A stretch of 64,000 nt of DNA from a bacterium (GCA_005239895.1 SBBB01000011.1:24957-88956), one strand, 5' to 3'; numbered from the stretch's first letter, positions 8,039-64,000 are shown. The notes: a model not told the origin generated them from the sequence alone. Made by a program: numbers and translations.

Positions 8039-8058
8039 AATAAAAAATTAAAATAAAA

Positions 8059-8484
8059 TTAGGTTTTTTGTTTAGGTTTTTTAACACCATAAAGAGATCT
8101 ACCTCTTCTACGATCCGCAACGCCTTGAGTGTCATACACACCTCTAACAATGTGGTAACGCACACCCGGTAAATCTTTAACTCTTCCACCTCTAATTAAA
8201 ACCACAGAATGTTCTTGCAAATTATGACCAATTCCAGGAATATACGCTGTCACTTCCATTCCATTAGATAAACGAACTCTGGCTATTTTACGCAAAGCTG
8301 AGTTTGGTTTTTTGGGTGTAGTTGTGGTTACTTTTAAACAAACTCCACGCTTAAATGGACTACCTTTAGGCAATCTATTTTCTACGCGCTTTAAAGTATT
8401 AAAAACTGTCATTAAAGCTGGAGATTTAGATTTTTTAGTTTTAGATGTTCTGCCGTAACGTAATAATTGATTAATTGTGGGCAT
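8059..8484 (-). CDS. rpsL: 30S ribosomal protein S12
   Basis: 141-aa S12-like protein ([16 protein letters not shown]) at the head of the str operon. Confidence 0.95.
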
Positions 8485-8520
8485 AATTAAATAAAAAATG
8501 AGACTTTTGAATTATATAAT

Positions 8521-8575
8521 ATCTAAAAACATAAGTCAAGGATTGCAGCGCGCATCCTTGACTTAGTCAAAAAAG
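8521..8575 (-). terminator. stem-loop (AGTCAAGGAT...ATCCTTGACT) followed by a U-run on the minus strand; likely terminator of the pilin gene
   Basis: A 10-bp GC-containing inverted repeat sits directly 3' of the 8605 stop. On the minus strand it is followed by UAUGUUUUUAG. Confidence 0.55.
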
Positions 8576-8604
8576 GGTTTAAACCATTAATAAGCATAAT
8601 GATT

Positions 8605-10914: not shown

Positions 10915-11121
10915 ATTTTAATAACGTAAAAATATAATTAAGGTATTATAAAAAATAAAAATTAATATTAGAAATATTATAACACAATTTTTTGAGTATA
11001 AACAGAAAAAAACTCTAGAAGATATCCACAGGAAGAAAGTTGAAAGTTTATCAAGTTATAAAGTTTAACCATCTCACTTTGTCATTCCCTACCATTAAAA
11101 GATCGCCTGAAAATAAATACA

Positions 11122-12516
11122 TTACTTTATCATCTCGCTAATTTTGTCACTAATGCGCCTCAAACGCGCTTGCGCTTTCTTGTCACCCTGCGCTTTTGCC
11201 TCCATTTCCATATCTACAAAAGTAAAAAGTAAGTCATCTAGCTGATTATCGTCCAGATCGCTTAGGTACGGTTTAATATCTTTATTAAAAGATGTATGTA
11301 AACTTTCATTTAATAAACAAGCTAAATACCTTTTTTCAAAGTCACTACCACAATACATAACAATTCGAACATCATCTTTTATTTTTCTAGTTATTTCTTT
11401 GTTCAATATTGAACCTCTAATACTAATAAATTCTCTAAAAAGAGAAACTACTCCATTTTTAAAAAGCTCAGGATAACCTTCTATGATCTGTTGTAAATCG
11501 AGGTCTTGAATCGCAGCTGATAAACGTAGGGTGGTAGATAAAACATCTCGCCACTTATTATGATCTTCAGAAATAAATGTAGCACAGAGCGTCCCTCTTT
11601 CGCCTCTATCTCTGATAATTCGAAAACCTAATTTTTCTAAAACTTCTGTTGAAAAATCCTGTCGATCTATTGCCCCCTGATAACCAGATTCAACATATCG
11701 AAACGATATAGTGTATTCGGGACGATCTTGATACATTTGAGCACTCATTTCAATATAATGTTTTCCAGTCGCAACTGTAAAATCAACAAAATCTTCTCCA
11801 ATAACTGAAATAATATCTCCTCTTTCTTTATTAAAAAAAATAGCATTTGAAAACACCCCTAATTTATTTAAAGTTTCATTAAAAATAATTTTACCAATTT
11901 CTGATTCCGACACTCCGTTTTTAGTAATATCTAATATCTTAATATGTGTATTTTTTTCTTCTGTAAAAAATAAAGAATTTTTTATATTCTCAACCTGAAA
12001 TTTAGATAGATTAACCGCTCGTGTTATAATTCCATGAAAAAACCTTACAGCTTCTTCTAAAGAATCAACTTCTTCCCATTTTAATAAGGGTGTCCCTTTG
12101 TCGTTTAAAATTTTTGAAAACTCATTATATGCTTCGCGACCTTTTTCTGAAAGATACGTTTTTCCATTTTCACTGACATCAACACTACCATCTCCATGTC
12201 TTAAAACATCGTTACTCCCATAACCAAAACGAGCAATCAATGAAATCTTTTCTGCATTCGTAGTAAACCTTGCAATTAAACCTTTAAGATCTATACTGCT
12301 TAACTCGGCACCAATTTTAAATCCACAAAAATTTGTAATGGCAAAAAACATGTCTTCGATTTTTTGTGTCACCCTTTTATAATCTTGCATAAATCGTCCA
12401 GCAGTCATTGAACTTGGTTCTGTGATGGCAAGTATCGCACGAGCCTGATCAGATAGTTTATTAAAATCAGAAAGTATTTCAAAATTTAAATCTTTGGCTC
12501 GACGAACACTTTCCAT
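11122..12516 (-). CDS. hypothetical protein (464 aa), no recognisable domain
   Basis: Long ORF in the same orientation as, and 40 nt downstream of, the 337-aa ORF. Soluble and acidic, with no motif I can assign. Confidence 0.5.
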   Translation of the reverse strand: MESVRRAKDLNFEILSDFNKLSDQARAILAITEPSSMTAGRFMQDYKRVTQKIEDMFFAITNFCGFKIGAELSSIDLKGLIARFTTNAEKISLIARFGYGSNDVLRHGDGSVDVSENGKTYLSEKGREAYNEFSKILNDKGTPLLKWEEVDSLEEAVRFFHGIITRAVNLSKFQVENIKNSLFFTEEKNTHIKILDITKNGVSESEIGKIIFNETLNKLGVFSNAIFFNKERGDIISVIGEDFVDFTVATGKHYIEMSAQMYQDRPEYTISFRYVESGYQGAIDRQDFSTEVLEKLGFRIIRDRGERGTLCATFISEDHNKWRDVLSTTLRLSAAIQDLDLQQIIEGYPELFKNGVVSLFREFISIRGSILNKEITRKIKDDVRIVMYCGSDFEKRYLACLLNESLHTSFNKDIKPYLSDLDDNQLDDLLFTFVDMEMEAKAQGDKKAQARLRRISDKISEMIK

Positions 12517-19467: not shown

Positions 19468-19554
19468 AAAAAAACTTTTAGCTTTTAGCTTTTAGCTTTC
19501 TAACCCTTCCGACCTAAAGATCGTCAAGACCTGCTACTTTCTACTTTCTACTTT

Positions 19555-19716
19555 TTAACTTATTTGTTTATCTGCAACAATCATCAAAGAAATAATAGTT
19601 ACTAATAAACCAATCACAATGTCATTTCCTCTAGCAAATCCACTATATCCCCATACAAATGGAGATAAAATTAACCAAATTCCGAGTAAAGTTTGAGCCC
19701 ACACTACAGGTTTCAT
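19555..19716 (-). CDS. small hydrophobic protein (53 aa, 2 predicted TM)
   Basis: ORF MKPVVWAQTLLGIWLILSPFVWGYSGF... lies below the ORF-track size cutoff. It is hydrophobic and speculative. Confidence 0.3.
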   Translation of the reverse strand: MKPVVWAQTLLGIWLILSPFVWGYSGFARGNDIVIGLLVTIISLMIVADKQIS

Positions 19717-21442: not shown

Positions 21443-21895
21443 CTATACCAACATCAATGATTTTAGAGTTGCTGAATCATCAGCATAATACCGATAAACA
21501 GCAACAATCTCGTTGGCATTGTCGTGCCAACAAATTGAATCCACAATTGTCTCGGGCCTAAATTTAACCACAAACCTGGACTCATTTAATAAATATGCTC
21601 CACACGACGAGCACTTTGCATCCAAGCTAAATCCCCTACCCGAAGATTTTGTCAAATACTCCAGATTCAGAGGAGCATCAGCTCTTAAGACTTTAGGTTT
21701 TCTACGCCCATAAAACAAGCATTTCAAAATAATATCTCTGATTTCTTTGGGCATATTGTTGCCAAAAATCACATACCGAGGCAAGGCATCTTCGCTCACG
21801 CCCTGCTGGTTGTTATTCAACCTTGTTTGTAACTCCGTAAGCCTGAATGTAAACAAACTTGGAGTATGTCTAGTATTTGAAAAACCTGAAAACAT
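21443..21895 (-). CDS. hypothetical protein (~150 aa from SD-supported start; ORF-track start 21937)
   Basis: AAAAGGAGGCGACT-ATG sits 5 nt upstream of the internal Met at 21895. It is translationally coupled to the upstream 175-aa ORF. GC is visibly higher than the flanks. Confidence 0.45.
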   Translation of the reverse strand: MFSGFSNTRHTPSLFTFRLTELQTRLNNNQQGVSEDALPRYVIFGNNMPKEIRDIILKCLFYGRRKPKVLRADAPLNLEYLTKSSGRGFSLDAKCSSCGAYLLNESRFVVKFRPETIVDSICWHDNANEIVAVYRYYADDSATLKSLMLV

Positions 21896-21908
21896 AGTCG
21901 CCTCCTTT

Positions 21909-22436
21909 TCATATTGTACAACATTCAACATTGTCACTGATAAAACCCGTTACACCCTTATCAATCTTCCCTGAAGGATAAACAGTACAAAGACGATATA
22001 GATCGCCATCAAAACAATCTCCAGTAAGAAGACTTACAGGCTTCTCAAAAATACGAGAGAGTGCCAGAAACGGCTTAACATCTTTAGACATCCGAAATTC
22101 TCCTAACTGCTCGTAGGTTTCAATAGTGAACGGCAACTCCACCTCTACGATATTGTAAAGCTTCTCATTCAAACCACCCCAGCTCAAATTAAAAGGAAAT
22201 ATCCGTTTAATCTTCTTTTGTTGTGGATTAAACATGGGTCTTAACATCTGTGGTGTGATGCCAACGAGTGGTAACACTCTAGTCATTGGCAACATCCATA
22301 CAATCTCACTACAAGTAATAGAAAGAGATGAAACACTGTTTAACTGTCTTACAAATAAACTCATGCAGTCAGTTTTAATAAACTCTTCTCTAATGACTTG
22401 ATCTGTAACATCTTCTGGCTGTTTATATTTAAGCAT
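21909..22436 (-). CDS. hypothetical protein (175 aa)
   Basis: AGGAGA lies 6 nt upstream of the ATG. The segment is visibly GC-richer than its surroundings, and no domain was recognised. Confidence 0.5.
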   Translation of the reverse strand: MLKYKQPEDVTDQVIREEFIKTDCMSLFVRQLNSVSSLSITCSEIVWMLPMTRVLPLVGITPQMLRPMFNPQQKKIKRIFPFNLSWGGLNEKLYNIVEVELPFTIETYEQLGEFRMSKDVKPFLALSRIFEKPVSLLTGDCFDGDLYRLCTVYPSGKIDKGVTGFISDNVECCTI

Positions 22437-22875: not shown

Positions 22876-22909
22876 CGTGACGCTATATCTCGATCGTGAT
22901 GAAGTGTCA
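22876..22909. repeat. 34-nt palindrome GTGACg..atCTCGATCGTGATGAAGTGTCAC (family copy a, degenerate left arm)
   Basis: Inverted repeat with a CGATCG centre. Related copies lie at 30417, 48607 and 50395. Confidence 0.8.
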
Positions 22910-23001
22910 CAGTGCAAAATTAGTATAATTTAATACAAATACTAAAACTTGCCATATAACACCTAGGCGCGATCGAGCTTAAGAGTGATAGCGTCAAAAA
23001 G

Positions 23002-23304
23002 TTAAACTTTTAGTTTTTCTAAATATGCAGATACTTGATCCACATCCGAATCAGCTAAAATATGTCCATCAATATCTAAAGTCGGGGTTTTGGTTTGACC
23101 AGATTTTTGTAACATCTCTTTAAAAAATTCTTCATTAGTCAAAACATTTCTTTCTTCAAATTTTATTTTTTTCTTATTTAAATAATCTAAAACATCTTTG
23201 CACCACGGACACCCTGTTTTAACATATATAATTATATTCATATTTTTAATCATTATCGTCCTATAATTTACTCCAAGACTTATAAACTTTAAAAAAATTA
23301 TCAT
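23002..23304 (-). CDS. glutaredoxin-like protein (CPWC active site)
   Basis: YVKTGCPWCKDV thioredoxin-fold motif. The true start may be the internal MNIIIY (79 aa). Confidence 0.75.
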   Translation of the reverse strand: MIIFLKFISLGVNYRTIMIKNMNIIIYVKTGCPWCKDVLDYLNKKKIKFEERNVLTNEEFFKEMLQKSGQTKTPTLDIDGHILADSDVDQVSAYLEKLKV

Positions 23305-23466
23305 TTTGTCATCCTCGGGCTTGACCCGGGGATCCAGGTTATGTTTAATAATTCTATACTCTGACCAGATATGCTGTCGACCACTATTGAAACAATGATC
23401 GTAAACGTGCGCGCTCCTGGATTCCCGCCTGCGCGGGAATGACAGGAAAAACGCAGAAATGACAGG
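23305..23466. repeat. MITE-like ~150-nt palindromic element, copy A (TGTCATCCTCGGG ... TTGACCCGGGGATCCAGGTTAT ... GCGCTCCTGGATTCCCG ... CGGGAATGACA)
   Basis: GC-rich inverted-repeat element with no ORF. A second copy lies at 46353-46490 and a TGTCATTCCCT fragment at ~11072. Confidence 0.65.
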
Positions 23467-23496
23467 AAAAATTTTCTACTTTCAACTTTTTACTTT

Positions 23497-25683
23497 CTAA
23501 CTCTTTGATGTTGGCCATTTTTCAATTGCTAAAAAGGTTTTAGAGCCTAATAAACCCCAAATATATTCAGTGATAAATGGCATAAATGGATGTAATAATT
23601 TTAGAGACTGTTTTAAGCAATGAACTAAAATTAATTGCGTATTTTTAGCGAGAGCAGAATCTTTTAATTGAGTTTTGCTCGCTTCAATATACTTATCAGC
23701 TAAATTATGCCAAATAAATTGATAAATAGTTTGACTAGCGTTATTTAGAGAAAAATTCTTTATATCTCCCGTAACTTTTTTAATAGTATCATCTAAATCC
23801 TGTAAAATCAATTTATCTTCGGGAGTTAAAGCCACGGGCTGTTGAACTGACTGCAATATATTTTTGTCACAATTCGCAACTATAAATCTAAATATATTCC
23901 ATAATTTATTAGCAAAATGTTTCATTCCCTTTACTTGATCTTCGTCAAATTTTACATCATTTCCAAAAGCAGCTCCAGACATAAGTCCCATGCGCAATGC
24001 ATCTGCTCCGTATTTTTCAATCATTTCTACGGGGTCAATTCCATTACCAAGTGATTTACTAAACTTGCGCCCATTTTTATCACGAACTATTCCGTGAATC
24101 ATCACTTCTCGAAATGGAACTTGCCCCAAGTGAAAACCGCTCATTAAAATCATACGCGAAATCCAAAGCTGTAAAATTTCGTAAGCTGGAGAAATAAGAG
24201 AGGTTGGATGAAAATTTTTTAGATCTTGAGATTTTTCTGGCCAACCTAAAGTAGAGAAAGTCCAAAGACCTGAAGAAAACCAGGTATCTAAAGTATCAGG
24301 ATCTTGAACCCAACCCTCACCTTTTGGAATTTTAATATCACAACAAACTTCGTCTCCCCGATACCAAATCGGAATACGATGTCCAAACCAAATTTGACGC
24401 GAAATACACCAATCTTTCAAATTATCTATCCAATGAAAATAAATTTTCTGAAATCTTTCTTGACTAATTTTTACTGCGCCACTACTTACACTCTCGCGCA
24501 TTATTTCATTTAAAGAAACCTGACTACCACTTTTAATTCCTGGTATTTCTGAATATGGAATTGTAAATTTTTTATTAATATCAACCCACCATTGTAATTT
24601 AGGCAAAAGTTCAATAATTGCTCCAGTTCTTTCAGAGATTGAAACATTTTGTTGAATTTTATCTTCTTTTTCAAGTAAGCCTTGATCCTTAAGCCAAGAC
24701 ACAACAACCTCTCTGGCTTCCGATACTTTTTTTCCATCCAAGTGTCCGACAGTCATTTTAGCATATTCATTAATTATTTGAGGGCGAGGCAAATTATGCC
24801 TATCAGCTATTTCCCAATCTACTTGGCTGTGAGCTGGTGTTACGCCCAAGGCTCCGGTGCCAAAATCTTTTTCCACTGATTCATCAGCAACAATTTTGAT
24901 ATGAATGGGAATATCGCAAAAAATTAAATCAAATTCTTGTCCAATATATTTTTTATATCTAATATCATCTGGATGAACTGCGACCGCCGTATCACCAACC
25001 TTAGTTTCAGGACGAGTAGTTGAAATCGCAATCGGGAAATCTTTAGAATATTTAAAAGTGTACAACTGAGTTTGACGATCTTCATAAATTATTTCATCGT
25101 CCGAAATAGTGGTTTGACCCTTAGGATCCCAATTTACAATTCGGTTTCCACGATAAATAAGTCCAGCTTCATACATTCTTTTAAAAGCCGTATAAACTGC
25201 AAATTGACGTTTTTCATCTAAGGCATAAGCATAACGACTCCAATCTAAAGAAGCACCCATCCGTTTGACCTGAGTTAAAATCACTTTTTCGCTTTTGAGC
25301 GCAAACTCCGTAATGCGTCTAACCAATTCTTCCCGACCTAAATCATATCTGTTTTTATGTTCTTCTTTTTGAATATCTTTTTCTACCCTAGCTTGGGTTG
25401 CAATTGCGGCTGAATCCGTGCCCGGAATCCAAATTATCTTTTTGCCGCACATACGCTGATAGCGAATCAAAACATCTTGAAGAGAGTCTTCATAAGCATG
25501 ACCTATATGCAGAACTCCGGTTACATTGGGAGGTGGAAGAACCATTGAGAATACTTCACGTTTATTTAATTCAGGATCAACGCCCTCAACGCTACTAACA
25601 AAAATTTTAGCTTCATCCCATTTTTTATTAATCTCATCTTCAACTAAAACTGGATCATAGTTTTTAGGTAATGTTGTTTCCAT
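23497..25683 (-). CDS. valS: valyl-tRNA synthetase (short form, 728 aa)
   Basis: The PPPNVTGVLHIGHA HIGH-region and the KFSKSLGN KMSKS-region are ValRS-type. It lacks the long C-terminal coiled coil. Confidence 0.85.
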   Translation of the reverse strand: METTLPKNYDPVLVEDEINKKWDEAKIFVSSVEGVDPELNKREVFSMVLPPPNVTGVLHIGHAYEDSLQDVLIRYQRMCGKKIIWIPGTDSAAIATQARVEKDIQKEEHKNRYDLGREELVRRITEFALKSEKVILTQVKRMGASLDWSRYAYALDEKRQFAVYTAFKRMYEAGLIYRGNRIVNWDPKGQTTISDDEIIYEDRQTQLYTFKYSKDFPIAISTTRPETKVGDTAVAVHPDDIRYKKYIGQEFDLIFCDIPIHIKIVADESVEKDFGTGALGVTPAHSQVDWEIADRHNLPRPQIINEYAKMTVGHLDGKKVSEAREVVVSWLKDQGLLEKEDKIQQNVSISERTGAIIELLPKLQWWVDINKKFTIPYSEIPGIKSGSQVSLNEIMRESVSSGAVKISQERFQKIYFHWIDNLKDWCISRQIWFGHRIPIWYRGDEVCCDIKIPKGEGWVQDPDTLDTWFSSGLWTFSTLGWPEKSQDLKNFHPTSLISPAYEILQLWISRMILMSGFHLGQVPFREVMIHGIVRDKNGRKFSKSLGNGIDPVEMIEKYGADALRMGLMSGAAFGNDVKFDEDQVKGMKHFANKLWNIFRFIVANCDKNILQSVQQPVALTPEDKLILQDLDDTIKKVTGDIKNFSLNNASQTIYQFIWHNLADKYIEASKTQLKDSALAKNTQLILVHCLKQSLKLLHPFMPFITEYIWGLLGSKTFLAIEKWPTSKS

Positions 25684-30416: not shown

Positions 30417-30450
30417 GTGACAACCTATCACGATCGAGATGAAGTGTCAC
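30417..30450. repeat. 34-nt palindrome GTGACAACCTATCACGATCGAGATGAAGTGTCAC (family copy b); preceded by a 2x16-nt tandem ACTTAGATATCACCTT
   Basis: Read directly from the divergent spacer between gyrB and the plus-strand membrane-protein gene. Confidence 0.8.
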
Positions 30451-38865: not shown

Positions 38866-38871
38866 TCCTAC

Positions 38872-38896
38872 TTAGTCGCCTTGCCACTAAGTAACT
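38872..38896. repeat. hairpin CTTAGT-CGCCTTGCC-ACTAAG; an inverted copy lies at 57697-57719
   Basis: The two loci share 23 nt (CTTAGTCGCCTTGCCACTAAGTA). Confidence 0.6.
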
Positions 38897-44380: not shown

Positions 44381-44671
44381 TTACACTATCTGAAAATCAA
44401 TATGAATAATTTGCTCAGTTAAGGGATTACGTTGTAGTTCTTTTACTTTAACTTTCAAGGGTTGGTCTTGATCAATATACAGATCGCATAAAGAATCCTT
44501 TTTAATATTTAATAAAGGTTTAAAATGCGAACTATATTCCATCTCAATAGTTAAAGGTTTAAAATTTACTCCATAAACAACCGCAGGCATAAAACCACCT
44601 TTGCGCACAACTCGCACGGACTTACCTAACACTGATCTTTTTTTTGATTTAATAATAATAGAATCTGACAT
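44381..44671 (-). CDS. rplY: 50S ribosomal protein L25 (short, N-terminal-domain-only form)
   Basis: 96-aa protein resembling the short single-domain L25 form (RKGGFMPAVVYG...). Confidence 0.7.
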   Translation of the reverse strand: MSDSIIIKSKKRSVLGKSVRVVRKGGFMPAVVYGVNFKPLTIEMEYSSHFKPLLNIKKDSLCDLYIDQDQPLKVKVKELQRNPLTEQIIHIDFQIV

Positions 44672-45077: not shown

Positions 45078-45180
45078 AATCGTTTATTATTATCTTATAT
45101 AGTATAACATAAACTTTTGAAACGTCAACACTTTTATTGTATTACCAAAATTTGTTTAAAACCAGTGCATCAATATTGAT

Positions 45181-46296
45181 CTAATCAATCTTTTTAAATG
45201 CACCGTTACTGTAAGTTTTAACAACCAAATCAGCATCAAACGCGTGATTACCCAAATATAAGTATTGTCCAGCTGCGCCTTTAAAATCTTGGGCTAGAAA
45301 ATCAATTATCTCCGTATTAGTAGTTTTGCCAACAGATACAGCTTCAGTCAGTCTAGCCACAGCATCATAAACATGATCGCCCGCCACCCCCGGAAGAATA
45401 TTATATACTTTTTGATAATTTTCGGCATATACAAAATTATCATGCCCCACAATAAGCTGATTTTCAAATCTGCCTTCTGCAATTCTTACTTGATCACCAT
45501 CTTCCATATTTACATAACCAACTATGGGAATATCCCAACCAATATCTTTAATCTGTTTAGCTAAAAGGCCTGATTGCGGGAACACACTATTAACCAATAC
45601 ATCCGGATTTGCAGATTTAACTTTTAAAATAGTAGTTTTAAAATCATTGCTAGTTTTTTCAACAGATTCATTTGCAACTAATTCATAACCATTTTCAGTA
45701 ACAGCTTTAGCCACAGCTTCCGCAAAAGCCTTGGGTCCATCCGCTTTATTTGAAATAATAGAAACCTTTTTGTATTTACCTTTTAATAATAAAGCTTCTA
45801 AACGCACGGCTTCTTTATCTGGACTGGGCATAAATCTCAACACCCATTTTTTACCATCATTTATTTCTTTAGCAATACCAATGCCAATCAAAGGCACTTG
45901 TTTTTGTTCCGCAATATGAGAAGCAGCTATAGAAGAAGCTGAACTAAATGTTACCAGCGCATTAACCTTGTCAATATTTATTAATTTGTGTACAGCTGCT
46001 ACGGTCTTTTTGGTATCTAAAGCATCGTCTTCATAAATAATTTCAATTTTTTCTTTAACCTTGGCATCTAAATCGGTTAAAGCTAATTCAACACTATTTT
46101 TTCCAGATTCACCTAAAGACGGAGCTGGTCCAGTTAAAGGCAAAATAACACCAATTTTAAATTTTGACTGAACTTCAGTTGGACTATTTAAAAATCTATA
46201 CCCTACCAAACCAATAATTAGAAGCAACACTACGCCAAGAGCTATTTTCATATTTTTATTCGCCCAGTTAGAGGTTTGATTATTATCTATATTCAT
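45181..46296 (-). CDS. ABC transporter substrate-binding protein, branched-chain amino acid (LivJ-like) family
   Basis: N-terminal anchor, then KIGVILPLTGPAPSLGESGKN typical of type-I periplasmic binding proteins. Confidence 0.8.
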   Translation of the reverse strand: MNIDNNQTSNWANKNMKIALGVVLLLIIGLVGYRFLNSPTEVQSKFKIGVILPLTGPAPSLGESGKNSVELALTDLDAKVKEKIEIIYEDDALDTKKTVAAVHKLINIDKVNALVTFSSASSIAASHIAEQKQVPLIGIGIAKEINDGKKWVLRFMPSPDKEAVRLEALLLKGKYKKVSIISNKADGPKAFAEAVAKAVTENGYELVANESVEKTSNDFKTTILKVKSANPDVLVNSVFPQSGLLAKQIKDIGWDIPIVGYVNMEDGDQVRIAEGRFENQLIVGHDNFVYAENYQKVYNILPGVAGDHVYDAVARLTEAVSVGKTTNTEIIDFLAQDFKGAAGQYLYLGNHAFDADLVVKTYSNGAFKKID

Positions 46297-46352
46297 ATTT
46301 TATATTTAAAAATTAATTGAATACTATATACTTTGTGTTATTTCAATCATCT

Positions 46353-46490
46353 CCTGTCATTCCCTGTTTTTTCTGTCGTCCTCGGGTACATTCGGACATA
46401 AATGTCCTCAGTATCACGACTTGACCCGGGGATCCAGGTTATATTTAATTGTACGCGCTCCTGGATTCCCGATCAGGTCGGGAATGACAA
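46353..46490. repeat. MITE-like palindromic element, copy B
   Basis: It shares the modules TGTCRTCCTCGGG / TTGACCCGGGGATCCAGGTTAT / GCGCTCCTGGATTCCCG / CGGGAATGACA with copy A at 23305-23466, with different internal insertions. Confidence 0.65.
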
Positions 46491-46497
46491 AAGAGGA

Positions 46498-46692
46498 CTA
46501 ATCCGTTACTTCTATCCTCGTATCACCTTCATATTCGTATAATTTACCATTTTCTTCATCTTTAGTCTTTTTATGTGAGCCATCGCAAAGAGGTTTATTT
46601 TTAGATAAACCGCACATACAAATCCACTTACTCTCGCCACTTACTTTAATTTCACAAGGATGCTGCTCGTCATGTTTTATTAATCTAGACAT
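46498..46692 (-). CDS. CDGSH-type iron-sulfur domain protein
   Basis: 64 aa containing CMCGLSKNKPLCDGSH, the C-x-C-x2-S-x3-P-x-CDGSH consensus. Confidence 0.75.
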   Translation of the reverse strand: MSRLIKHDEQHPCEIKVSGESKWICMCGLSKNKPLCDGSHKKTKDEENGKLYEYEGDTRIEVTD

Positions 46693-46824
46693 ATTAATTT
46701 ATTAAAAACTTTAAACTTACAACTTTAAGCTTAATTAATTTTATCACTACTATACTTAAATTGCAAATTTTGCTTGTACGTTATCCAGGACATATGTAAT
46801 TTGATTTTTTTAAAATATTTTATT

Positions 46825-46841
46825 ATTCTATATAATATAGA
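46825..46841. promoter_or_regulatory. perfect 17-nt palindrome TTCTATATAATATAGAA overlapping a -10-like TATAAT upstream of the 115-aa gene
   Basis: Read directly from the sequence. It is followed by a GGGAGAG RBS and the ATG at 46886. Confidence 0.4.
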
Positions 46842-46885
46842 ATCTGGTATTAAAACCCAAAAGATAATGAACACAGGGAGAGAAA

Positions 46886-47233
46886 ATGAAACTATTTAAA
46901 ATATTGAAAAATATTCTGGATGCAAAAAATAGTGTACTGTATGACGGATTTAATGCTGTATATCATCTGAAAAATGATGATATTTATCAAGGAACAGCAA
47001 GATACGTTTTTCTTGTGCGAAATAAATTACAAATTTTACTAGCAGATGAATTTAGAAAGAAGCACTATTCGGGTATAGTAGTGGATATAGCTGTTTGTGA
47101 AGACGTGAATGTCCAGCAAGAAAAAATTGGTTATAAAAAAGCTAGGAGTTTTCACTCCTGTGCTAACGATAAAATGACAAAAGAAGAAATGGAGCACGCT
47201 GAGTATCGCAGGCAAGGAGGATGCGAAATATAA
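46886..47233 (+). CDS. hypothetical protein (115 aa)
   Basis: It has a good RBS and a strong downstream terminator. No domain was recognised. Confidence 0.5.
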   Translation: MKLFKILKNILDAKNSVLYDGFNAVYHLKNDDIYQGTARYVFLVRNKLQILLADEFRKKHYSGIVVDIAVCEDVNVQQEKIGYKKARSFHSCANDKMTKEEMEHAEYRRQGGCEI

Positions 47234-47251
47234 CATTATAAAAAACATCTA

Positions 47252-47292
47252 AGGGTCACCAGAGTATTTGCTGTGTGACCCTTCTAAAATTC
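47252..47292 (+). terminator. rho-independent terminator (AGGGTCAC ... GTGACCCT + U-rich tail)
   Basis: 8-bp GC-rich stem 18 nt after the 115-aa stop, followed by TCTAAAATTCT. A second GC hairpin (GTCTACA...CGCGGCCGCG...TGTAGAC) lies at ~47333-47368. Confidence 0.65.
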
Positions 47293-47398
47293 TAACCCGA
47301 ACTCAACATTTGTTCATTGTATGGGACAAACCGTGTCTACAACTCAGCGCGGCCGCGTTGAAGTGTAGACGCACACTGAAACTCAACCCTTTACGGTT

Positions 47399-48499
47399 CT
47401 AATCCAACCAGTCTTGTTTATCTTTCAAAAACTCTTTAATACGACCTAGACCTTCGGTAATTTTACTAACATCCAAAGCATAAGATAAACGAATATGGTC
47501 GGGCGCTCCAAACCAAGTGCCATCATAAACAATTACTTTATATTTATAAAAAAGTTCTGACACAACCCGGTTAGAATTTTTTATGTAAGGCAAAACATAA
47601 AAAGCTCCCTCGGGTTTACGAACTTTAAAACCCAATTGATTTAAACCTTTATAAATCAAATCTCGTCTTTGATGCCAAATTTTTACTTGCTGTTTAATAT
47701 AACTTTTCGGTGCTTGCATGGCAGCCACAGACATTTCTTGACCCATAATATTAGTGTTCATAGAAGTGTGCACTTTCATATCAATCACTTTTTGAACAAA
47801 ATTTTTATCAGGAGTCCAAAGATATCCCACGCGCAATCCACACATAGCATAAGTTTTAGAAAAAGAATTTATAGTAATTACACGCGGCCCTTTTATAATA
47901 TAATTTTTACGACCATAAATTAAATCCTTATACACTTCATCCGAAATAACCCATACTTTTAATTTTCGGCTTAATTTTTCAATTTCTTTTAAAGTGTTAA
48001 TTTCTTCAACCATTCCAGTCGGATTAGACGGTGAATTTATTAAAACTGCTTTTACGTGTTTAATTTTCTCTTTAAAATCTTTTAAATTAATACGCCCGTC
48101 TTGTAAATCCGTATAAACTGGTTCCATTTGGGCCAACCGAACATTAAAAGGATAAGAATAATAATAAGGCCTGCACAGAAGCACTTTTTGAGGTCCGGGT
48201 TCTGTAGCTAAAACTCGCATAGCTAAATCTAGAGCTTCAGAAGCTCCATTGGTAATTACAAAATTTTCACAAGAAGCATGGGGATATTCTTTGGATAACA
48301 GCTGACGAAGGTTTAGCTCCCCCTGAATCAATCCGTATTGAAAAAGACGATTATTTTCTAAATTTTTAAAAATTTCTTTAGGAGGAACAAGATCGGGTTG
48401 ACCAGAACCAAAAGAAATTATTCCATCGTTTCCGCCTCGCCCAATAAAAAAAGATGGACTATTAATAGGTTTTTTTGCTAGTTTATTTTTTGTAGACAT
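47399..48499 (-). CDS. class I/II pyridoxal-phosphate-dependent aminotransferase
   Basis: 366 aa with the PLP-lysine context SFSKTYAMCGLRVGY, typical of aspartate/aromatic aminotransferases. Confidence 0.85.
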   Translation of the reverse strand: MSTKNKLAKKPINSPSFFIGRGGNDGIISFGSGQPDLVPPKEIFKNLENNRLFQYGLIQGELNLRQLLSKEYPHASCENFVITNGASEALDLAMRVLATEPGPQKVLLCRPYYYSYPFNVRLAQMEPVYTDLQDGRINLKDFKEKIKHVKAVLINSPSNPTGMVEEINTLKEIEKLSRKLKVWVISDEVYKDLIYGRKNYIIKGPRVITINSFSKTYAMCGLRVGYLWTPDKNFVQKVIDMKVHTSMNTNIMGQEMSVAAMQAPKSYIKQQVKIWHQRRDLIYKGLNQLGFKVRKPEGAFYVLPYIKNSNRVVSELFYKYKVIVYDGTWFGAPDHIRLSYALDVSKITEGLGRIKEFLKDKQDWLD

Positions 48500-48606
48500 T
48501 TTTATAAATTCAATAATTATTTAAAAACCGATTGTGTTAAATAATACTAGTATTTAACTAATCTATCAAGGGTACTATAAAAATTTAAACATTTATTATT
48601 CTAGCC

Positions 48607-48640
48607 GTGACACTTCGTCACGATCGTGACGAAACGTCAC
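48607..48640. repeat. 34-nt palindrome GTGACACTTCGTCACGATCGTGACGAAACGTCAC (family copy c)
   Basis: In the divergent spacer between the aminotransferase and the 482-aa gene. Confidence 0.8.
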
Positions 48641-48799
48641 GCTCTTGTTCTTATGTTCTTCTATTTTGCAAGCTTTACAAATCCTTCTAACTAACAGGAT
48701 TGACAAAATAATACAAACTTGGTTTACTTTAAATAGGTATTGGATTTCTAATACTCTACTCGTAACTCGAAAACCAACTTTAACTTAAGGAGGACACTA

Positions 48800-50248
48800 A
48801 TGAAAACGGATGCGTTGAAACAAACAATTGGAAACAAGGTTACAAAACTCTTGCCAAACTATACAAAATTTATAGTCGAATGTAGGCATGAAGATGGTTT
48901 TGTATTCAATCGTATAATAGATATGATTCCTGGAGCAACTGCCTTGGCCAATTTAATGGGACAATCCCCGCTAGCAGAAGCTGAGGCTATCCTGCAATAT
49001 CCAAATGACGAATATATACTGGTACCGCGAGGCACACAGGTGTTGCAATTTATAATGGATAAGTCTGCTGAAGAAATCCCGATAGCCGCTATACTTGTGT
49101 GCGGCAATTCAATATTCAATGGAGTAGTCTCTGGACACAATGCGTATTACAGTATTTTCTCTTGGGAAGAACAAGAAAACATCAAAGAAAAAATTGCAAT
49201 TCAAAACAGTGTCTTGTTCAAAGAGTTTATTCCATCTAAATACTATCAGCATTCTGGTATCACAGTTAAAAATATATCTTCGCACCAAAGACACCCAGAA
49301 CAAAAACCAGTGTTGAGCTTGAACCTCTTTCGGGCTATGAAACAAAATCAACCAGATAGCATTGGCAGAAAGTGGAACTGGGATCATGCAAAAAATCCAG
49401 TGATGTTTACTCAAGGTGAACCACTGTCTCCAGATGGTTTTAATAGCCTGATTATTTGGTTTTATCATTCTACAACAAAACAATGGCTTGGGTGGAACTG
49501 CGAACATCGCACCAATATATCTGGGTTGTGCATTATGGGTGACCCAAATGTTGCAAGCTACTCAGAAAATGCGCCAAAAGATTATGTAGATTTATTGATT
49601 GAGCCAGTATTCATGGGTGTAAGCTTGACAGATTTTATCACTTATGTCGGCAGAATCTTTTCACCAAATAAACCAAATCAAGAACAATATCCAAAAACTC
49701 CTCAAGAGCTAGCTGAAAAAATGGCTGAAACACCTTACGGACGAGATCCACAACACCATTCTTTGTACGCGATTCCTACACCCATAAATAAATGGCGTGG
49801 ACAATGGGCATGGGTGTACGAAGTAGTGGAGCTATACGGAGAAGAACATAGATACCAATTAATTTGGCTCCCGAGCAACATTGTGTTTACACGCGGATTA
49901 CAATGCTTACCAAACCACTATGAAACAAATCCCCCACCACCGCTACTTGGTAAAGCTGTTGAACTTACAGAACCTAAATGGCTTAATGCAAGTATTGAAC
50001 TAGGAATTATTCTAAATCGCTCATGTGATCTTGATCCTCCCAATAATCCTGAGAATCCACCCAATAACAGTGGTTTCTTTAAAGCCATTGAATCAATACC
50101 ATCACTAGGGGCCTATCACAACGGAGCTATACAATTTGTGGAACCAAACAAATTGCCAGATTGCGACACTTCTAAGCCTGTGTATTGGTTACAAAACAGG
50201 GACAATAATCTATCAAAAGCACTATCTATTCTACAAGAAGTTACCTAG
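48800..50248 (+). CDS. hypothetical protein (482 aa), orphan, compositionally atypical
   Basis: Strong SD (AAGGAGG 6 nt upstream). GC is visibly higher than genome background. No TM or signal peptide, and no recognisable motif. A 9-Cys protein (contains CEHRTNISGLC, among others). Confidence 0.6.
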   Translation: MKTDALKQTIGNKVTKLLPNYTKFIVECRHEDGFVFNRIIDMIPGATALANLMGQSPLAEAEAILQYPNDEYILVPRGTQVLQFIMDKSAEEIPIAAILVCGNSIFNGVVSGHNAYYSIFSWEEQENIKEKIAIQNSVLFKEFIPSKYYQHSGITVKNISSHQRHPEQKPVLSLNLFRAMKQNQPDSIGRKWNWDHAKNPVMFTQGEPLSPDGFNSLIIWFYHSTTKQWLGWNCEHRTNISGLCIMGDPNVASYSENAPKDYVDLLIEPVFMGVSLTDFITYVGRIFSPNKPNQEQYPKTPQELAEKMAETPYGRDPQHHSLYAIPTPINKWRGQWAWVYEVVELYGEEHRYQLIWLPSNIVFTRGLQCLPNHYETNPPPPLLGKAVELTEPKWLNASIELGIILNRSCDLDPPNNPENPPNNSGFFKAIESIPSLGAYHNGAIQFVEPNKLPDCDTSKPVYWLQNRDNNLSKALSILQEVT

Positions 50249-50336
50249 TACTAAAGGAATAATAGTGCACATGAATTATAAGGCGTTGGGGTCGTATTTA
50301 TTCAGCGACCTCAACCCAACTCCTACCAATTCCTAA

Positions 50337-50370
50337 AACCCAAAAATTGTTTGGGTTTTATTTTTTTATA
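50337..50370 (+). terminator. rho-independent terminator (AAAACCCAAA-AATTG-TTTGGGTTTT + T7)
   Basis: Perfect 10-bp stem followed by ATTTTTTT, downstream of the 482-aa gene. It is preceded by a second hairpin (GTTGGGGTCG...CGACCTCAAC). Confidence 0.75.
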
Positions 50371-50394
50371 AAAATTTTTTATAATATTCTTAAC

Positions 50395-50428
50395 GTGACA
50401 TTTCATCACGATCGAGATGAAGTGTCAC
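50395..50428. repeat. 34-nt palindrome GTGACATTTCATCACGATCGAGATGAAGTGTCAC (family copy d)
   Basis: In the convergent spacer between the 482-aa gene and ftsW/rodA. Confidence 0.8.
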
Positions 50429-50501
50429 GTTCTTAAATTTTAACTTATTCATTTTCCATTTAATGAATCTGGTAACTATTTTGATAAACCTAATAACTTT
50501 T

Positions 50502-51608
50502 TTAATGTGTTGCAACCGATTTAATAATACTTTGAGCAATGCCTATACCTATCATGGAAGATATTAAAGAACTACCACCATAACTTAAAAATGGAAGAGC
50601 TATCCCCACTACAGGCAATAATCCTAAATTCATGCCAATATTAATTACAATTTCCATAAAGAACAAAGAAAAAATTCCTAAAATTAAAAAATACCCAAAA
50701 TCATTATCAATATTTTTTAAAACCCTAATTAAACAATGACAAAGCAATCCATAAAACCCAAACACAAAAATAATACCTACTAAACCAACCTTTTCGGTTA
50801 AGCTGGCAAAAATAAAATCCGTACTAGCTTCAGGTAAAAACCTCAACTGGGTTTGGGTACTCTCTAAAAAACCCTTTCCAAACCAACCACCCGAACCAAT
50901 GGCAATCAAAGACTGATTAACATTATAACTCCTCCCTAAAACATCGGCTGAGGGATGTATAAAACTCAATATTCTATCTTTTTGATAGGGTTTAAAAAAA
51001 ACAAACCAACTGGTGACAAACAGAACTGCCACAACCAAAAAAACCAATAATAACGAACTTTTTTTAACTTCTGAAAATAGAATCATCATTAACCAAATCA
51101 AACCCAAAATTAAAGCTGATCCAAAATCTGGTTCGGCTAAAACCAAAAATATAAAAGGAGAAATTAATAACAAACTACCAACGAAGTATAACCAATTATT
51201 TACAAACGTATTATAAATACTTAAATAATAAGCTAGTATAATTATTAAAAAAATTTTCACAAACTCTACGGGTTGAAAATTAAAGCCATAAAAAGCAAAC
51301 CATCCGGTTGTACCACGCATTGATTTTCCAAAATATAACACTCCAATTAATAAACCTAAACCTAAAATATACAAAGGCACAATATACGCTCGCAAAGATT
51401 GATACTTTATATAGCTAACACTAAACATTATGACAAAACCAATACCTATAAAACTGGCTTGTTTATAAAATAGTTTTAAATTACCAGGAATGTCCTGAGA
51501 TCTTAGAGCAATACTATAAAGAACCAAAAGACTAACCAGAGATAAAACTACCAAAGAAACGATTAACAACCAATCTAGGTTCTTAAACATCCACAAAAAT
51601 CTCCGCAT
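50502..51608 (-). CDS. SEDS-family peptidoglycan glycosyltransferase (FtsW/RodA)
   Basis: 368-aa polytopic protein with SEDS-family conserved segments (GWFGKG, PEASTDFIFA, LPVVGIALPFLSYGGSS). Confidence 0.85.
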   Translation of the reverse strand: MRRFLWMFKNLDWLLIVSLVVLSLVSLLVLYSIALRSQDIPGNLKLFYKQASFIGIGFVIMFSVSYIKYQSLRAYIVPLYILGLGLLIGVLYFGKSMRGTTGWFAFYGFNFQPVEFVKIFLIIILAYYLSIYNTFVNNWLYFVGSLLLISPFIFLVLAEPDFGSALILGLIWLMMILFSEVKKSSLLLVFLVVAVLFVTSWFVFFKPYQKDRILSFIHPSADVLGRSYNVNQSLIAIGSGGWFGKGFLESTQTQLRFLPEASTDFIFASLTEKVGLVGIIFVFGFYGLLCHCLIRVLKNIDNDFGYFLILGIFSLFFMEIVINIGMNLGLLPVVGIALPFLSYGGSSLISSMIGIGIAQSIIKSVATH

Positions 51609-57567: not shown

Positions 57568-57790
57568 AATTTTAATTACCTGCTAATTAATACAGGTAGT
57601 ATTAGTAATATAAGTTAATATAACATATACTATAACATTTTACTCTTTTTGCCTAGAGATACTATAAATAATTAAAATTACTATACTGACAAAAAACCTA
57701 CTTAGTGGCAAGGCGACTAAGTTTACTAATACGGTTGTTTATTATATAAAATATGCTATAATTAATAAACTAATATTTAAGTTTTAATAT

Positions 57791-59125
57791 ATGAATATTT
57801 TTACGTCTTCGTTAGTTTTATTTGTAACCCTGTCTCTGGCTTTACCAAGTGCAGCGTTTTCTGCGGAAGTTGCTGCAACCACTACAAAACCAGTTATAAA
57901 AAAAGGATTTTGCGTTGATATTTTAAAGCAACAAACAGTAATAAATAAAGAAATAAAAGATCAACAATCTAATGAAACGAACAAAATCAAAAAAACAAAT
58001 AATTTTTTCAAACAACAAACTAGGAACCAAAAAAATATTCTAAACACGCTAAAAACTGATACAAATAAATTATTTGCAAGACTAGAATCTCGGGCTAGCA
58101 CTGAAGTCCATAAAAACGCCTTAAAGCAAAGCAAAGATAATACTATAAAAATGATTGAGGAAAGGATAGTATCTGTTACGACCAGCGCTAAAGAACTTGA
58201 AGATACAGTGCAAAAGTTACTTGATGATCGAAAACCAGTGTTTGATAATGCTTTGAATAATTATAAAACAAATTTACAAAACAATGCTAAAACAGCTGAA
58301 ACCCAGTGTGCCAATAAAGCTGATGAAGCAAAAACCAAAACAGATTTCACGGCTGTAAACAAAAAATACAAAACAAGTTTCACTTCAGATATGACTACTT
58401 TGGGGAATCTGGATAATTTAATTAAAATAACTGAAAAAACACATAAAATAAAAACAACTGATCAAATTCAAGAATACAAAAATGCTGTTGAAAACTATAA
58501 AATCAATCCCTCAAATCCAACCCTGTCATCCGACGGGGCACGCACCACACCAACACCAACACCAACGCCAATCCCGACACCTACTCCTACTCCGGTTTCC
58601 ACCCCTACTCCAACCCCAACCCCAGTTCCTACTCCTACACCCACACCAACTCCTACACCAGTGCCAACCACCACGCCCACACCAACTCCGACGTCCACAC
58701 CCGTTCCAACCCCCACACCCACGCCTATACCAACGCCAATAACTCAACCAGAAATAGATCTTGAGCTACAATCCGTTTCTGTATCACCTGAGGGTAGCGC
58801 ATATTACATCAGCTTATATTTATGTGTTAAGGGTTCCAAAAGCATAAATGATATTAAAGCAACTAACACAAATATAACTGCCTTACCAATAGATTATCTT
58901 ACTTATACTACAGACAGCGTGCCCCACAAAACAAAGTTGTCGGGCGTTTCTTATCTTGATACCCTAAAAAGTGGAGGCTGTAGTAATATGGGAACCATGA
59001 TGTATAATAGTGATGCTATAACGCGTTTCAAGAATACCAAAAAAATAACAGTTACACTCGATGAAGCAAATCAAATCCCAGAAACTAATGAAAATAATAA
59101 TAGTAAAACCTTTATAGGTAATTAA
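57791..59125 (+). CDS. secreted surface protein with (Thr-Pro)n linker and C-terminal CARDB-like domain
   Basis: Signal peptide ([25 protein letters not shown]), a Lys-rich helical region, an ~65-aa PTPTPTP linker (58545-58740), and a C-terminal ...[15 protein letters not shown] ending. Confidence 0.65.
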
Positions 59126-60574: not shown

Positions 60575-61105
60575 AATAATGAATTGGTGGGGGCGGTGGT
60601 TTACTGTTCTTGCAAGCGTTGTTGACAACGATCGTCACGACAGCGCTAAACCGCCCCCATGTGCGAGAAGACATAACCTTTGCTCGCACCACAATGTAAT
60701 AATGAAATGGGGTGGATGGGTTTTGCTTTGTTATCAAGCGTGTGTTGGTGACGTGTTTTGGGGAACCACGGCAACACTAAACCCATCCTGCACGACTCAG
60801 TCAAATGTAAAACAGGTGTTCGCTCGCCACTAATAGCCTCACTTGACTGATTTTTCGTACCCCCAAAATAATCGGGACGGGGTGGTTTTGGGCCAGGTTT
60901 GTTACTGATGACTAGCACCAGAAACACGGACCTGAAACCACCCCTGTGCAATGCAATCCACGCGCAGCCTTCTACACGGATCAACCCGATGCCTATGACT
61001 GGGTTGTATGGCCACGCTTGCAATAATCGCGCATTGCACCCCTTCGATAAAGAAGCGATCTCTCCCAACCGCTTAGGGCACTCTAGAGAGAATGCTGTTT
61101 TTTTT
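60575..61105 (-). rRNA. 23S rRNA 5'-domain(I)-like fragment; truncated pseudogene or rRNA-derived structured RNA
   Basis: ORF-less, conspicuously GC-rich ~0.5 kb. The minus-strand reading contains UUAGUGGCGAGCGAAC, GGGGUGGUUUCAGG, UUGAUCCG and AAGAACAGUAAACC in the order of conserved LSU domain I elements. It ends in a GGGGGCGGU/ACCGCCCCC hairpin. No further rRNA sequence follows. Based on recall of LSU consensus, not on a search. Confidence 0.4.
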
Positions 61106-61314
61106 GCGAAAATCACTCAAAACGCAAAAAAACAAGAGATCACCTTAACACAACGAAGCTTTTTTCTTTCTATTTCCACTACTAACGCCACGTTGTGTTC
61201 TCTATCGTAAAAATCTCATCCTAAAAACATGATAATACATCATAACATATAGAATATTTTTTGTCAACCCCCACAATTTGTTCCCAAACCTAATCAGTGT
61301 TATAATAATAATAT

Positions 61315-63236: not shown

Positions 63237-63271
63237 ATAAAAAAAATTTAAAAATTTAAGATTTAAGCTAC

Positions 63272-63325
63272 AAGCTAAGAAGCTAAGAAGCTAAGAAGCT
63301 AAGAAGCTAAGAAGCTAAGAAGCTA
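63272..63325. repeat. 8-nt microsatellite (AGCTAAGA)x6.5
   Basis: Perfect tandem copies between the dnaE stop and the start of the 399-aa gene. Confidence 0.85.
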
Positions 63326-64000
63326 ACCCTGAGCACCTAAACGCACTAAGGCCTGGTTAACAGTTTCGTGACTAAGTTCGTAAGCTGAAATACAGGTTAA
63401 TTTTACTTCATCATCTTTATGAAATATTTCTGCCTTCATTATAACACAGTTATCTTTATTCCACAAACTAGTGTTAATATTTAAAATTTTAGGGAAAACC
63501 ACAACCTCAACTTCCGAAAATTTATCAGCTAATTTTGCAAAAAGCATTTGTTCATTTTTTTTAGTAATAATCTTTTTTACGGAACTTAATATACCCGCCA
63601 CAATAATTTGCGCGCCATCCACATAATTACTAATATCAATTAAACGTATAGTAGCATTTTTAATAATTTCATAAAAATCCATAAACGGGTGCGCTGAAAT
63701 ATATAAACCCAAAAACTCTTTTTCCCAAGCTAATTTTTCCTGTTTAGTAATTTGAACTTCGGGTTGAGATGTAAAACCTAAAACCGCATCATTCGAATTA
63801 TTTTTAGAATTATCACCACTTCCACTATTATCACTCGCACTACCTGAATGATCATTATCTAACCAATCAAATAAACTTTCTTGTTTACTTTCTTTATCTT
63901 TTAAATAATCTTTATGATATTGCAATAATTTATCCAAATTAGAAATCATCAAACCCCTGTCAGCCAAAGTATCTAAAGCGCCACTTTTAATTAAACCCTC
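63323..64000 (-). CDS. dnaE: DNA polymerase III alpha subunit, C-terminal portion (5' end outside window)
   Basis: The reading frame is open to the window edge. EGLIKSGALDTLADRGLMISNLDKLL... and EKEFLGLYISAHPF are DnaE C-terminal motifs, followed by an OB-fold region. Confidence 0.8.
   Translation of the reverse strand, partial: EGLIKSGALDTLADRGLMISNLDKLLQYHKDYLKDKESKQESLFDWLDNDHSGSASDNSGSGDNSKNNSNDAVLGFTSQPEVQITKQEKLAWEKEFLGLYISAHPFMDFYEIIKNATIRLIDISNYVDGAQIIVAGILSSVKKIITKKNEQMLFAKLADKFSEVEVVVFPKILNINTSLWNKDNCVIMKAEIFHKDDEVKLTCISAYELSHETVNQALVRLGAQG

Follow-up and report, generated by a model that had tools for sequence, protein, structure and literature searches.

A variable region beside RodA in a very sparsely sampled bacterial lineage, and a rare two-domain protein family represented in it

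Is a short run of genes that lies between repeats and encodes two seemingly orphan proteins a single acquired module, or ordinary chromosome in which one part has come from elsewhere? The question is raised by positions 46335-50430 of a 64-kb stretch of bacterial DNA (GCA_005239895.1 SBBB01000011.1:24957-88956; 64,000 nucleotides, nt, here called the window). A preliminary description saw in these positions a compositionally foreign patch with repeats at its boundaries, holding a CDGSH iron-sulfur protein, an aminotransferase and two orphan proteins of 482 and 115 amino acids (aa). On balance, the patch appears to be a mosaic and not a single module: ordinary host DNA, dispersed repeats, one acquired gene (that of the 482-aa protein) and one orphan. 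All the features named in the preliminary description are present, at about the positions given. This reading corrects the picture of a repeat-bounded island, which would be ordinary host DNA with genome-wide repeats; what it leaves in the patch is a cargo gene gained horizontally and an orphan gene restricted to the lineage. The whole window is AT-rich (33.5% guanine plus cytosine, GC), with nearly all genes on the minus strand, and the host is of a Patescibacteria (Parcubacteria-like) type with a small genome of about 33.5% GC. The best matches of its RodA bear source names of the Patescibacteria/Parcubacteria type, and since the nearest is only 52% identical, the host lineage is very sparsely sampled. 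A scan of genome contigs with RodA returned distant phyla only, and a metagenome scan with the aminotransferase returned no matches.

The composition of the patch was compared with that of 58 open reading frames (ORFs) in the window using GC content, GC at each codon position and a leave-one-out log-likelihood of synonymous codon usage. The gene means are 0.339 (33.9%) for GC and 0.253 for GC at third codon positions (GC3). Taken as a whole, the patch has 35.5% GC against 33.5% for the window, and the 482-aa gene is its sole compositionally odd gene, whereas for the other three (CDGSH, 115-aa and aminotransferase) the values stay within +/-0.7 standard deviations. The description as foreign therefore fails for the patch as a whole, in which only the 482-aa gene deviates, and moderately. 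Native values are found for the CDGSH gene (GC 0.344, z 0.12; GC3 0.277; synonymous-codon z 0.67), the 115-aa gene (GC 0.328, z -0.33; GC3 0.250; synonymous-codon z -0.02) and the aminotransferase gene (GC 0.334, z -0.14; GC3 0.226; synonymous-codon z 0.53), the last of which had already been described as native-looking. The 482-aa gene has a GC of 0.393 (39.3%; z 1.5), a GC3 of 0.323 (z 1.4) and a synonymous-codon z of -1.98, which places it among the four most atypical window ORFs in codon usage. The visibly higher GC ascribed to it is thus real, although the excess is modest.

The 482-aa protein matches only itself in a word-indexed search of 5.8 billion proteins, and yet it has about 20 relatives once every sequence is scored. 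An exhaustive phmmer (HMMER) search of 1.84 billion cluster representatives returns 13 relatives with E-values from 1e-62 to 6e-4 (the top relative, P0123, at 1e-62 and three others below 1e-19), and a metagenome scan yields four more family loci. About 20 family sequences are known in all, and the protein can no longer be called an orphan. Among all ORFs of the fetched loci, the family profile recovers exactly one copy per locus. The conserved core is a C-terminal domain of about 165 aa (window residues ~266-434) with the motifs F-x-AIPTP-x-N-x-WGWVYET-x-SGRQLIWLP...TRG and EP-x-WL...R-P. About half of the members consist of the C-terminal domain alone (157-217 aa), and the rest add an N-terminal/middle module of about 260 aa, giving full-length forms of 429-482 aa. 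No remnants of the N-terminal domain lie upstream of the short members, and a 226-aa ORF upstream of the L020 copy is not the missing N-terminal module; the short forms therefore appear genuine. In the C-terminal domain, the window protein is 31-41% identical to all other members, which are 40-74% identical among themselves, and it is the most divergent member of the family.

Searches with all members or with the profile found no match for the family in Pfam, PADLOC, PHROG, NCBIfam or PDB sequences, in keeping with the earlier remark that the 482-aa protein has no recognisable motif. No model of PADLOC-DB 2.0 matches any of 14 family members, and a literature search found nothing relevant. Modelled with AlphaFold as a single sequence, the 482-aa protein reached a predicted local distance difference test score (pLDDT) of 33; remodelled with an alignment (A1), it reached a pLDDT of 76 and a predicted template modelling score of 0.67. 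Foldseek with the 482-aa model found no match with a template modelling score above 0.2 in PDB or BFVD. The family is rare, patchy, unannotated and two-domain, with a fold that has no match in PDB or BFVD. The protein had also been described as lacking a transmembrane segment and a signal peptide, and its N-terminus is indeed hydrophilic, but residues 93-111 score 1.70, just over a threshold of about 1.6 for a membrane segment. Those residues, however, are conserved and confidently modelled as a beta-strand, which together with the hydrophilic N-terminus makes a cytosolic location likely.

In the window, the 482-aa gene is predicted to be a self-contained transcription unit made up of a promoter-like site, a Shine-Dalgarno sequence, the ORF and two terminator hairpins, the second of which is followed by a T-run. 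The Shine-Dalgarno sequence and the strong terminator agree with the preliminary description. Of 13 loci, 10 have a family gene with more GC than the flanks, for instance L012 (0.59 vs 0.38), L013 (0.59 vs 0.40), L009 (0.58 vs 0.465), L017 (0.47 vs 0.35) and L004 (0.40 vs 0.32), and the window copy, measured on L001, shows 0.39 vs 0.32. A general rule that the gene is always GC-richer than its flanks was rejected by L018, L019 and L020. The neighbours vary between loci, and many are of kinds seen in mobile elements or conflict systems. In L012, a tRNA-Ser is followed by the family gene and then by a serine-recombinase ORF (Recombinase and Zn_ribbon_recom domains). In L014, a tyrosine recombinase lies 1 kb away, and the L019 contig carries a small terminase subunit, along with a series of short unassigned ORFs, and has the same GC as its family gene. 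Two DNA methyltransferases adjoin the gene in L016, and in L009 it adjoins PDC-S01, a PADLOC candidate defence gene. In L015, it stands at the edge of a 60%-GC block, 11 kb long or more, next to which come housekeeping genes of 45% GC (EF-P, S6, Ddl and NYN). Within this block (1-11250) are a GNAT gene, an AAA ATPase of the bpMoxR type and four large ORFs of 450-880 aa without Pfam or PADLOC match, and the whole resembles a conflict-system island. Across the 13 loci, no family of neighbouring genes is found repeatedly, and a multi-gene system around the family gene was rejected on this ground.

Because of its composition, the patchy distribution of its family and the contexts of its homologues, we lean towards regarding the 482-aa gene as autonomous, moron-like cargo of mobile-element origin. 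Morons are autonomous cargo transcription units of (lambdoid) phages and prophages. The 482-aa gene resembles them as a lone ORF that has a promoter-like site and a terminator to itself and differs from its flanks in composition, a GC pattern repeated in 10 of the 13 homologous loci. Other loci place the family gene between tRNA and recombinase genes, or on a contig that carries a terminase, with no recurring partner. Unlike a typical moron, the window copy is outside any recognisable prophage; a position inside a prophage or integrative element is found or suggested in L012, L014, L015 and L019 only. The gene would have entered the lineage horizontally as cargo of an integrative element or phage, and would since have come to stand alone at a variable position beside RodA, partly ameliorated. 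The family as such is a candidate cargo gene of poorly known Patescibacteria mobile elements, since it repeatedly adjoins recombinases, a tRNA, a terminase and defence-type genes.

Several observations weigh against this origin. In the window copy, GC is raised only modestly (z ~1.5), in part at codon positions 1 and 2 and hence through amino-acid content; in 3 of the 13 loci, all on short contigs, there is no excess over the flanks. The domain scan, which covered ORFs between 44.4 and 52.4 kb, showed no integrase, transposase or phage gene; nor does a tRNA adjoin the patch, the only one (Asp) being at 53276, past RodA and two further genes. The family is unmatched in INPHARED phages, PLSDB plasmids and IMG/VR contigs, and sparse sampling (best RodA 52%) partly accounts for orphan and near-orphan status. 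Moreover, the family member of L004 (P0128) lies two genes from RodA, on the other side, which hints at old residence in the lineage rather than a recent gain. As the main alternative, the 482-aa gene could be old, vertically inherited and fast-evolving, long established near RodA, with a GC content that stems from its Trp/Pro/Gly-rich amino-acid content. We regard vertical residence as rather unlikely. It agrees with the position of P0128, a gene of about 40% GC in a background of about 32%, with GC1 and GC2 being raised along with GC3 in the window copy, and with the failure to find mobility genes among the ORFs scanned. However, the L004 copy is on the other side of RodA and has the C-terminal domain only, and in the tree of this domain P0128 falls with the GC-rich core, to which it is 53-61% identical, and apart from the window protein (39%). 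Synonymous codon usage of the window copy is also atypical (z -2.0), and elsewhere the family is patchy and adjoins mobile-element genes.

The product of the gene may play an accessory part in genetic conflict, for instance in superinfection exclusion, in defence or in modulating the host. This part would fall to the C-terminal domain, which is expected to bind and not to catalyse: Trp, Pro, Gly and hydrophobic residues dominate its invariant positions, and Glu and Arg are conserved once each, with a few Thr/Tyr besides. A conflict or accessory function is weakly suggested, and it counts against it that the guess has no other basis than the neighbourhood of the gene and the lack of catalytic-looking residues at invariant positions. 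The family is comparable to the single-gene candidates of the PADLOC PDC class in being stand-alone and patchy and in lying near PDC-S01, DNA methylases and a MoxR-type island. It differs from this class in that no PADLOC model matches any member, and it is not known to confer a defence phenotype.

Several family members carry a conserved structured leader, unmatched in Rfam at the loci scanned. The GC-rich members L011, L012/L013, L014, L015 and L018 share a conserved promoter (CTTGACAAA...TATAAT), followed by a structured 5' leader that can be as long as about 270 nt and ends at the Shine-Dalgarno sequence. The leader contains a long hairpin with compensatory changes between loci (GTGAGTAGCGC/GCGCTACTCAC vs ATGAGCAGCGC/GCGCTGCTCAT), the middle strand of which can alternatively pair with a downstream segment, and a conserved hairpin CTCCTCG...CGAGGAG, of which L014 has a compensated variant. 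A further helix is predicted to mask the Shine-Dalgarno sequence. At the loci scanned (L004 and L008-L013, with L014, L015 and L018 outside the scan), nothing matches an Rfam family. A covariance model (R1) built from four leaders finds only its source loci and a weak match in L009; it has no match upstream of the 482-aa gene in the window or in L004, and the leader of the 482-aa gene is unstructured (fold z = -1.06, not significant). Since only five distinct leader sequences are available, the conserved leader is a lead and not a demonstrated RNA. A wider proposal would join this leader (about 200-270 nt in most GC-rich members, with compensatory changes, two mutually exclusive pairings and a helix sequestering the Shine-Dalgarno sequence) to an undescribed mobile family of integrative elements or phages in Patescibacteria-like hosts, in which a riboswitch-like element or attenuator controls a conflict or accessory protein of PDB-unmatched fold. 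This combination is tentative, and we hold it to be possible but doubtful.

The repeats do not delimit the patch. The 482-aa gene was described as bracketed, promoter included, by two copies of a 34-nt palindrome, GTGAC-N9-CGATCG-N9-GTCAC. The two copies are present as described, but the window holds four copies of the palindrome (0 expected by chance), all intergenic and forming stable hairpins. In a simulation that scattered four copies randomly over the 30 intergenic gaps measuring 60 bp or more, 12% of trials left at least one gene with a copy on either side (P ~0.12). Given four intergenic copies and this frequency of chance bracketing, the bracketing is no evidence of a boundary. Of the 11 CGATCG hexamers in the window, where dinucleotide content predicts about 3.2, four are palindrome centres. 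The palindrome behaves like a dispersed extragenic repeat of the repetitive extragenic palindrome (REP) type. REP elements and bacterial interspersed mosaic elements (BIMEs) are known from enterobacteria and Pseudomonas, and the highly iterated palindrome HIP1 (GCGATCGC) from cyanobacteria. The window palindrome is like these elements in being short (34-40 nt), hairpin-forming, strictly intergenic, present in several copies per 64 kb and often located at gene 3' ends, with CGATCG as its centre. Its sequence is unrelated to known REP elements, and HIP1 is an 8-mer that also occurs inside genes, whereas the window element is 34 nt long and intergenic.

At the left edge of the patch, the copy described as resembling a miniature inverted-repeat transposable element (MITE) is confirmed by its terminal inverted repeats, its strong fold (-56.2 kcal/mol, z = -5.5) and a second copy (B) in the window. 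It is short and non-coding, as MITEs are; no clear target-site duplication was seen by eye, and no parent transposase was identified in the 64-kb window. MITEs and short palindromic elements with GGGAATGAC-type ends are widespread in small-genome bacteria. The window element is similar to them in size (~140-170 bp), terminal inverted repeats, strong self-folding, lack of coding potential and variable inner segments, and differs from them in that neither duplication nor transposase was identified and in being seen in two copies only. Both repeats are dispersed in the window and their flanking position fits chance, and the palindromes and the MITE-like element are not insertion ends; their hairpins may help termination.

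The L004 contig has repeats of its own: a dispersed 92-bp inverted-repeat element (copies at 909-1000 and 6306-6397) and, at 1852-1889, a 38-nt palindrome with a TCACGGTCGTGA core that resembles the TCACGATCGTGA core of the window. The element and the palindrome flank the L004 copy of the family gene. The window palindromes might then be functional, recombination or att-like ends of a mobile cassette that brought the 482-aa gene, given that copies lie on both sides of the promoter-gene-terminator unit and that the L004 homologue likewise stands between the inverted-repeat element at 909-1000 and the TCACGGTCGTGA-core palindrome at 1852-1889. Such a cassette is hardly credible, since the two other window copies flank nothing comparable, bracketing arises by chance with P ~0.12, and the L004 elements differ in sequence, one of them recurring elsewhere on that contig. 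In addition, the palindrome is unmatched at any other locus, and the GC-rich homologues are not flanked by it.

Gene order in relatives places the patch in a larger variable interval. In L004, the closest relative, the order is RodA, Zn-ribbon, L25 and S8 peptidase, and the window keeps this order with identities of 52%, 51%, 37% and 53%, the 113-aa Zn-ribbon gene serving as left anchor. In L005, L006 and L007, a hypothetical protein is followed by RodA and L25. Ribosomal protein L25 of the window (44381-44671, minus strand) has only 96 aa, corresponding to the N-terminal domain alone; in the relatives it has 184-226 aa, and the L005 and L006 forms carry a TL5 C-terminal domain. Between RodA and the Zn-ribbon gene, the window has 5.4 kb (45078-50501) that is absent there in relatives and contains a solute-binding protein, the MITE-like element, the CDGSH, 115-aa and aminotransferase genes and the 482-aa gene. 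No homologue of the solute-binding protein is found near RodA in L004, L005 or L006. The comparison of synteny suggested for the flagged patch therefore shows a block that is indeed missing from the RodA-L25 interval in L004-L007, but one that is larger than the patch: the block at 45.1-50.5 kb is lineage-specific and reaches farther left. This absence is seen at no more than 52% RodA identity, where ordinary rearrangement explains it equally well. With the nearest relative at only 52% in RodA, the indel says little on recent acquisition, and the difference shows a rearranged or variable spot, not evidence of recent insertion.

The absence of the block from the relatives, together with the two proteins without annotation that it contains, could still be taken to mean that the whole of 46.3-50.4 kb is one acquired accessory module (defence, toxin or other) with the MITE-like element at its left and the palindrome at its right. 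This is very improbable. Three of its four genes are native in GC and codon usage, no mobility gene occurs in the ORFs scanned, both repeats are found elsewhere in the window in a way that makes their flanking position compatible with chance, gene directions differ and each gene has its own terminator, no partner of the 482-aa gene recurs at other loci, and PADLOC matches neither the 482-aa nor the 115-aa protein. Nor do the 482-aa and 115-aa genes form a type II toxin-antitoxin pair, since an oppositely oriented aminotransferase gene lies between them and no partner recurs across loci. The suggestion of an acquired accessory module thus survives for the 482-aa gene alone, which is supported by its composition, its rare and patchy family, the contexts of its homologues and its absence at the site in relatives; it does not hold for the patch as a unit, with its native neighbours, its dispersed repeats and no mobility gene found among the ORFs scanned. 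Under the mosaic reading, the genes for the CDGSH protein, the aminotransferase, the solute-binding protein and the 115-aa protein would, with the same modest confidence, be ordinary residents of a rearranged region. The features are listed in Table 1.

Table 1. Positions of genes, signals and repeats in the window, and of the leaders at other family loci
Feature	Position	Strand	Remarks
482-aa gene	48800..50248	+	most divergent member of a rare, unannotated two-domain family
Promoter-like TTGACA-17-TTTACT	48700..48728	+	read from sequence
Shine-Dalgarno AAGGAGG	48787..48793	+	6 nt before ATG of 482-aa gene
Two hairpins after 482-aa gene	50282..50360	+	-35.4 kcal/mol, z = -4.6; second at 50334-50360
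115-aa ORF	46886..47233	+	own promoter-like site and terminator
17-nt perfect palindrome TTCTATATAATATAGAA	46826..46842	+	holds TATAAT -10 box upstream of 115-aa gene
Terminator hairpin after 115-aa gene	47251..47283	+	-18 kcal/mol, z = -4.8
GC-rich hairpin centred on GCGGCCGC	47333..47372		centroid helix, fold of 47290-47400
CDGSH-type 2Fe-2S protein, 64 aa	46498..46692	-	PF09360 1.5e-09, 38.4 bits vs cut-off 29.5
Class I/II pyridoxal phosphate (PLP) aminotransferase, 366 aa	47399..48499	-	PF00155 2.6e-53, profile positions 3-361 of 361
Periplasmic solute-binding protein (Peripla_BP_6), 371 aa	45181..46296	-	PF13458 3.7e-36; GC z 0.14, native
Zinc-ribbon protein, 113 aa	44736..45077	-	51% identical to L004 116-aa ORF directly after RodA; TIGR02098 match
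RodA	50502..51608	-	PF01098 2.4e-84; 52% identical to L004 RodA; right anchor of conserved order
Palindrome copy 1	22877..22910		outside patch
Palindrome copy 2	30417..30450		between gyrB and Wzy_C gene; outside patch
Palindrome copy 3	48607..48640		divergent intergenic region; hairpin -21.3 kcal/mol, z = -3.8
Palindrome copy 4	50395..50428		convergent intergenic region before RodA stop codon; hairpin -23.4 kcal/mol, z = -6.0
MITE-like element	46353..46490		138 nt; terminal inverted repeats TGTCATTCC / GGAATGACA (TGTCATTCC.../...GGGAATGACA)
MITE-like element, second copy (B)	~23300..23450		
Conserved leader, other loci	L011 1-207; L012 9730-10003 (= L013 ~1314-1587); L014 1960-2156; L015 9600-9868; L018 60-341		

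The second protein described as an orphan, of 115 aa, keeps this status in every search run. It matches only itself among the 5.8 billion proteins of the word-indexed search, and it has no match in Pfam, PADLOC, PHROG, NCBIfam, PDB, phages or IMG/VR; with the nearest sampled genome at 52% RodA identity, this is unsurprising. As stated earlier, it has neither a transmembrane segment nor a signal peptide, and its gene has a palindromic promoter and a strong terminator. The promoter is the best promoter-like match of the region (TTTAAA-16-TATAAT, 10/12), with its -10 box within TTCTATATAATATAGAA, and a GGGAGAG ribosome-binding region precedes the gene. That none of the searches finds a homologue would also be expected if the ORF were not a real gene or were a decaying remnant. 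We consider this unlikely in view of its native codon usage (z -0.02), the promoter-like TATAAT, the GGGAGAG sequence and the strong terminator; besides, the ORF fills otherwise empty intergenic space, and long random ORFs are rare in an AT-rich genome. It is probably a real, lineage-restricted gene. The GCGGCCGC hairpin sits between the 3' ends of this gene and of the aminotransferase gene.

The two annotated genes of the patch are of familiar types. The minus-strand CDGSH protein, recognised as such in the preliminary description, scores above the gathering threshold of PF09360 and has the full 3Cys-1His signature C-x-C-x2-(S/T)-x3-P-x-C-D-G-(S/A/T)-H in its translation (CMCGLSKNKPLCDGSH), where it reads C-x-C-x2-S-x3-P-x-C-D-G-S-H. 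It thereby shares both signature and above-threshold Pfam score with the mitoNEET/Miner-type CDGSH proteins, of which it represents a minimal, single-domain bacterial form without membrane anchor. The aminotransferase has the S-x-S-K motif of the PLP-binding lysine as NSFSKTY, and its NCBIfam matches are of the aspartate/aromatic aminotransferase type, all under the equivalog cut-offs.

Elsewhere in the window, other features stand out. By far the most atypical gene of the whole window is a 156-aa ORF at 60646-61116 (minus strand; GC 49%, GC3 0.52, z ~5) without Pfam match. Two overlapping ORFs of 164 and 175 aa at 21443-22436 (minus strand), also without Pfam match, are atypical in GC3 and codon usage (z about -2.1 to -2.2). 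They adjoin a 1-kb intergenic stretch in which palindrome copy 1 (22877) and MITE copy B lie together with a glutaredoxin gene; this is a second repeat-rich variable spot of the window. T-rich direct repeats (AACTTTTAACTTTCTACTTT...) occur in intergenic DNA at 1594-1642, 19473-19560 and 23470-23504, one of them abutting MITE copy B. A 24-nt sequence, ACTTAGTCGCCTTGCCACTAAGTA, is found at 38870-38893 and 57699-57722 in opposite orientations with 100% complementarity; it forms a hairpin with itself and may be another dispersed repeat or a terminator. An 8-nt unit, AAGCTAAG, is repeated in about 8 tandem copies in intergenic DNA at 63264-63327. Finally, a plus-strand gene at 57791-59125 encodes a 444-aa protein with Pro/Thr-rich tandem repeats of 12 and 30 nt (CCAACACCAACA...) at 58545-58740 and a weak CARDB match only, which is probably a surface protein.

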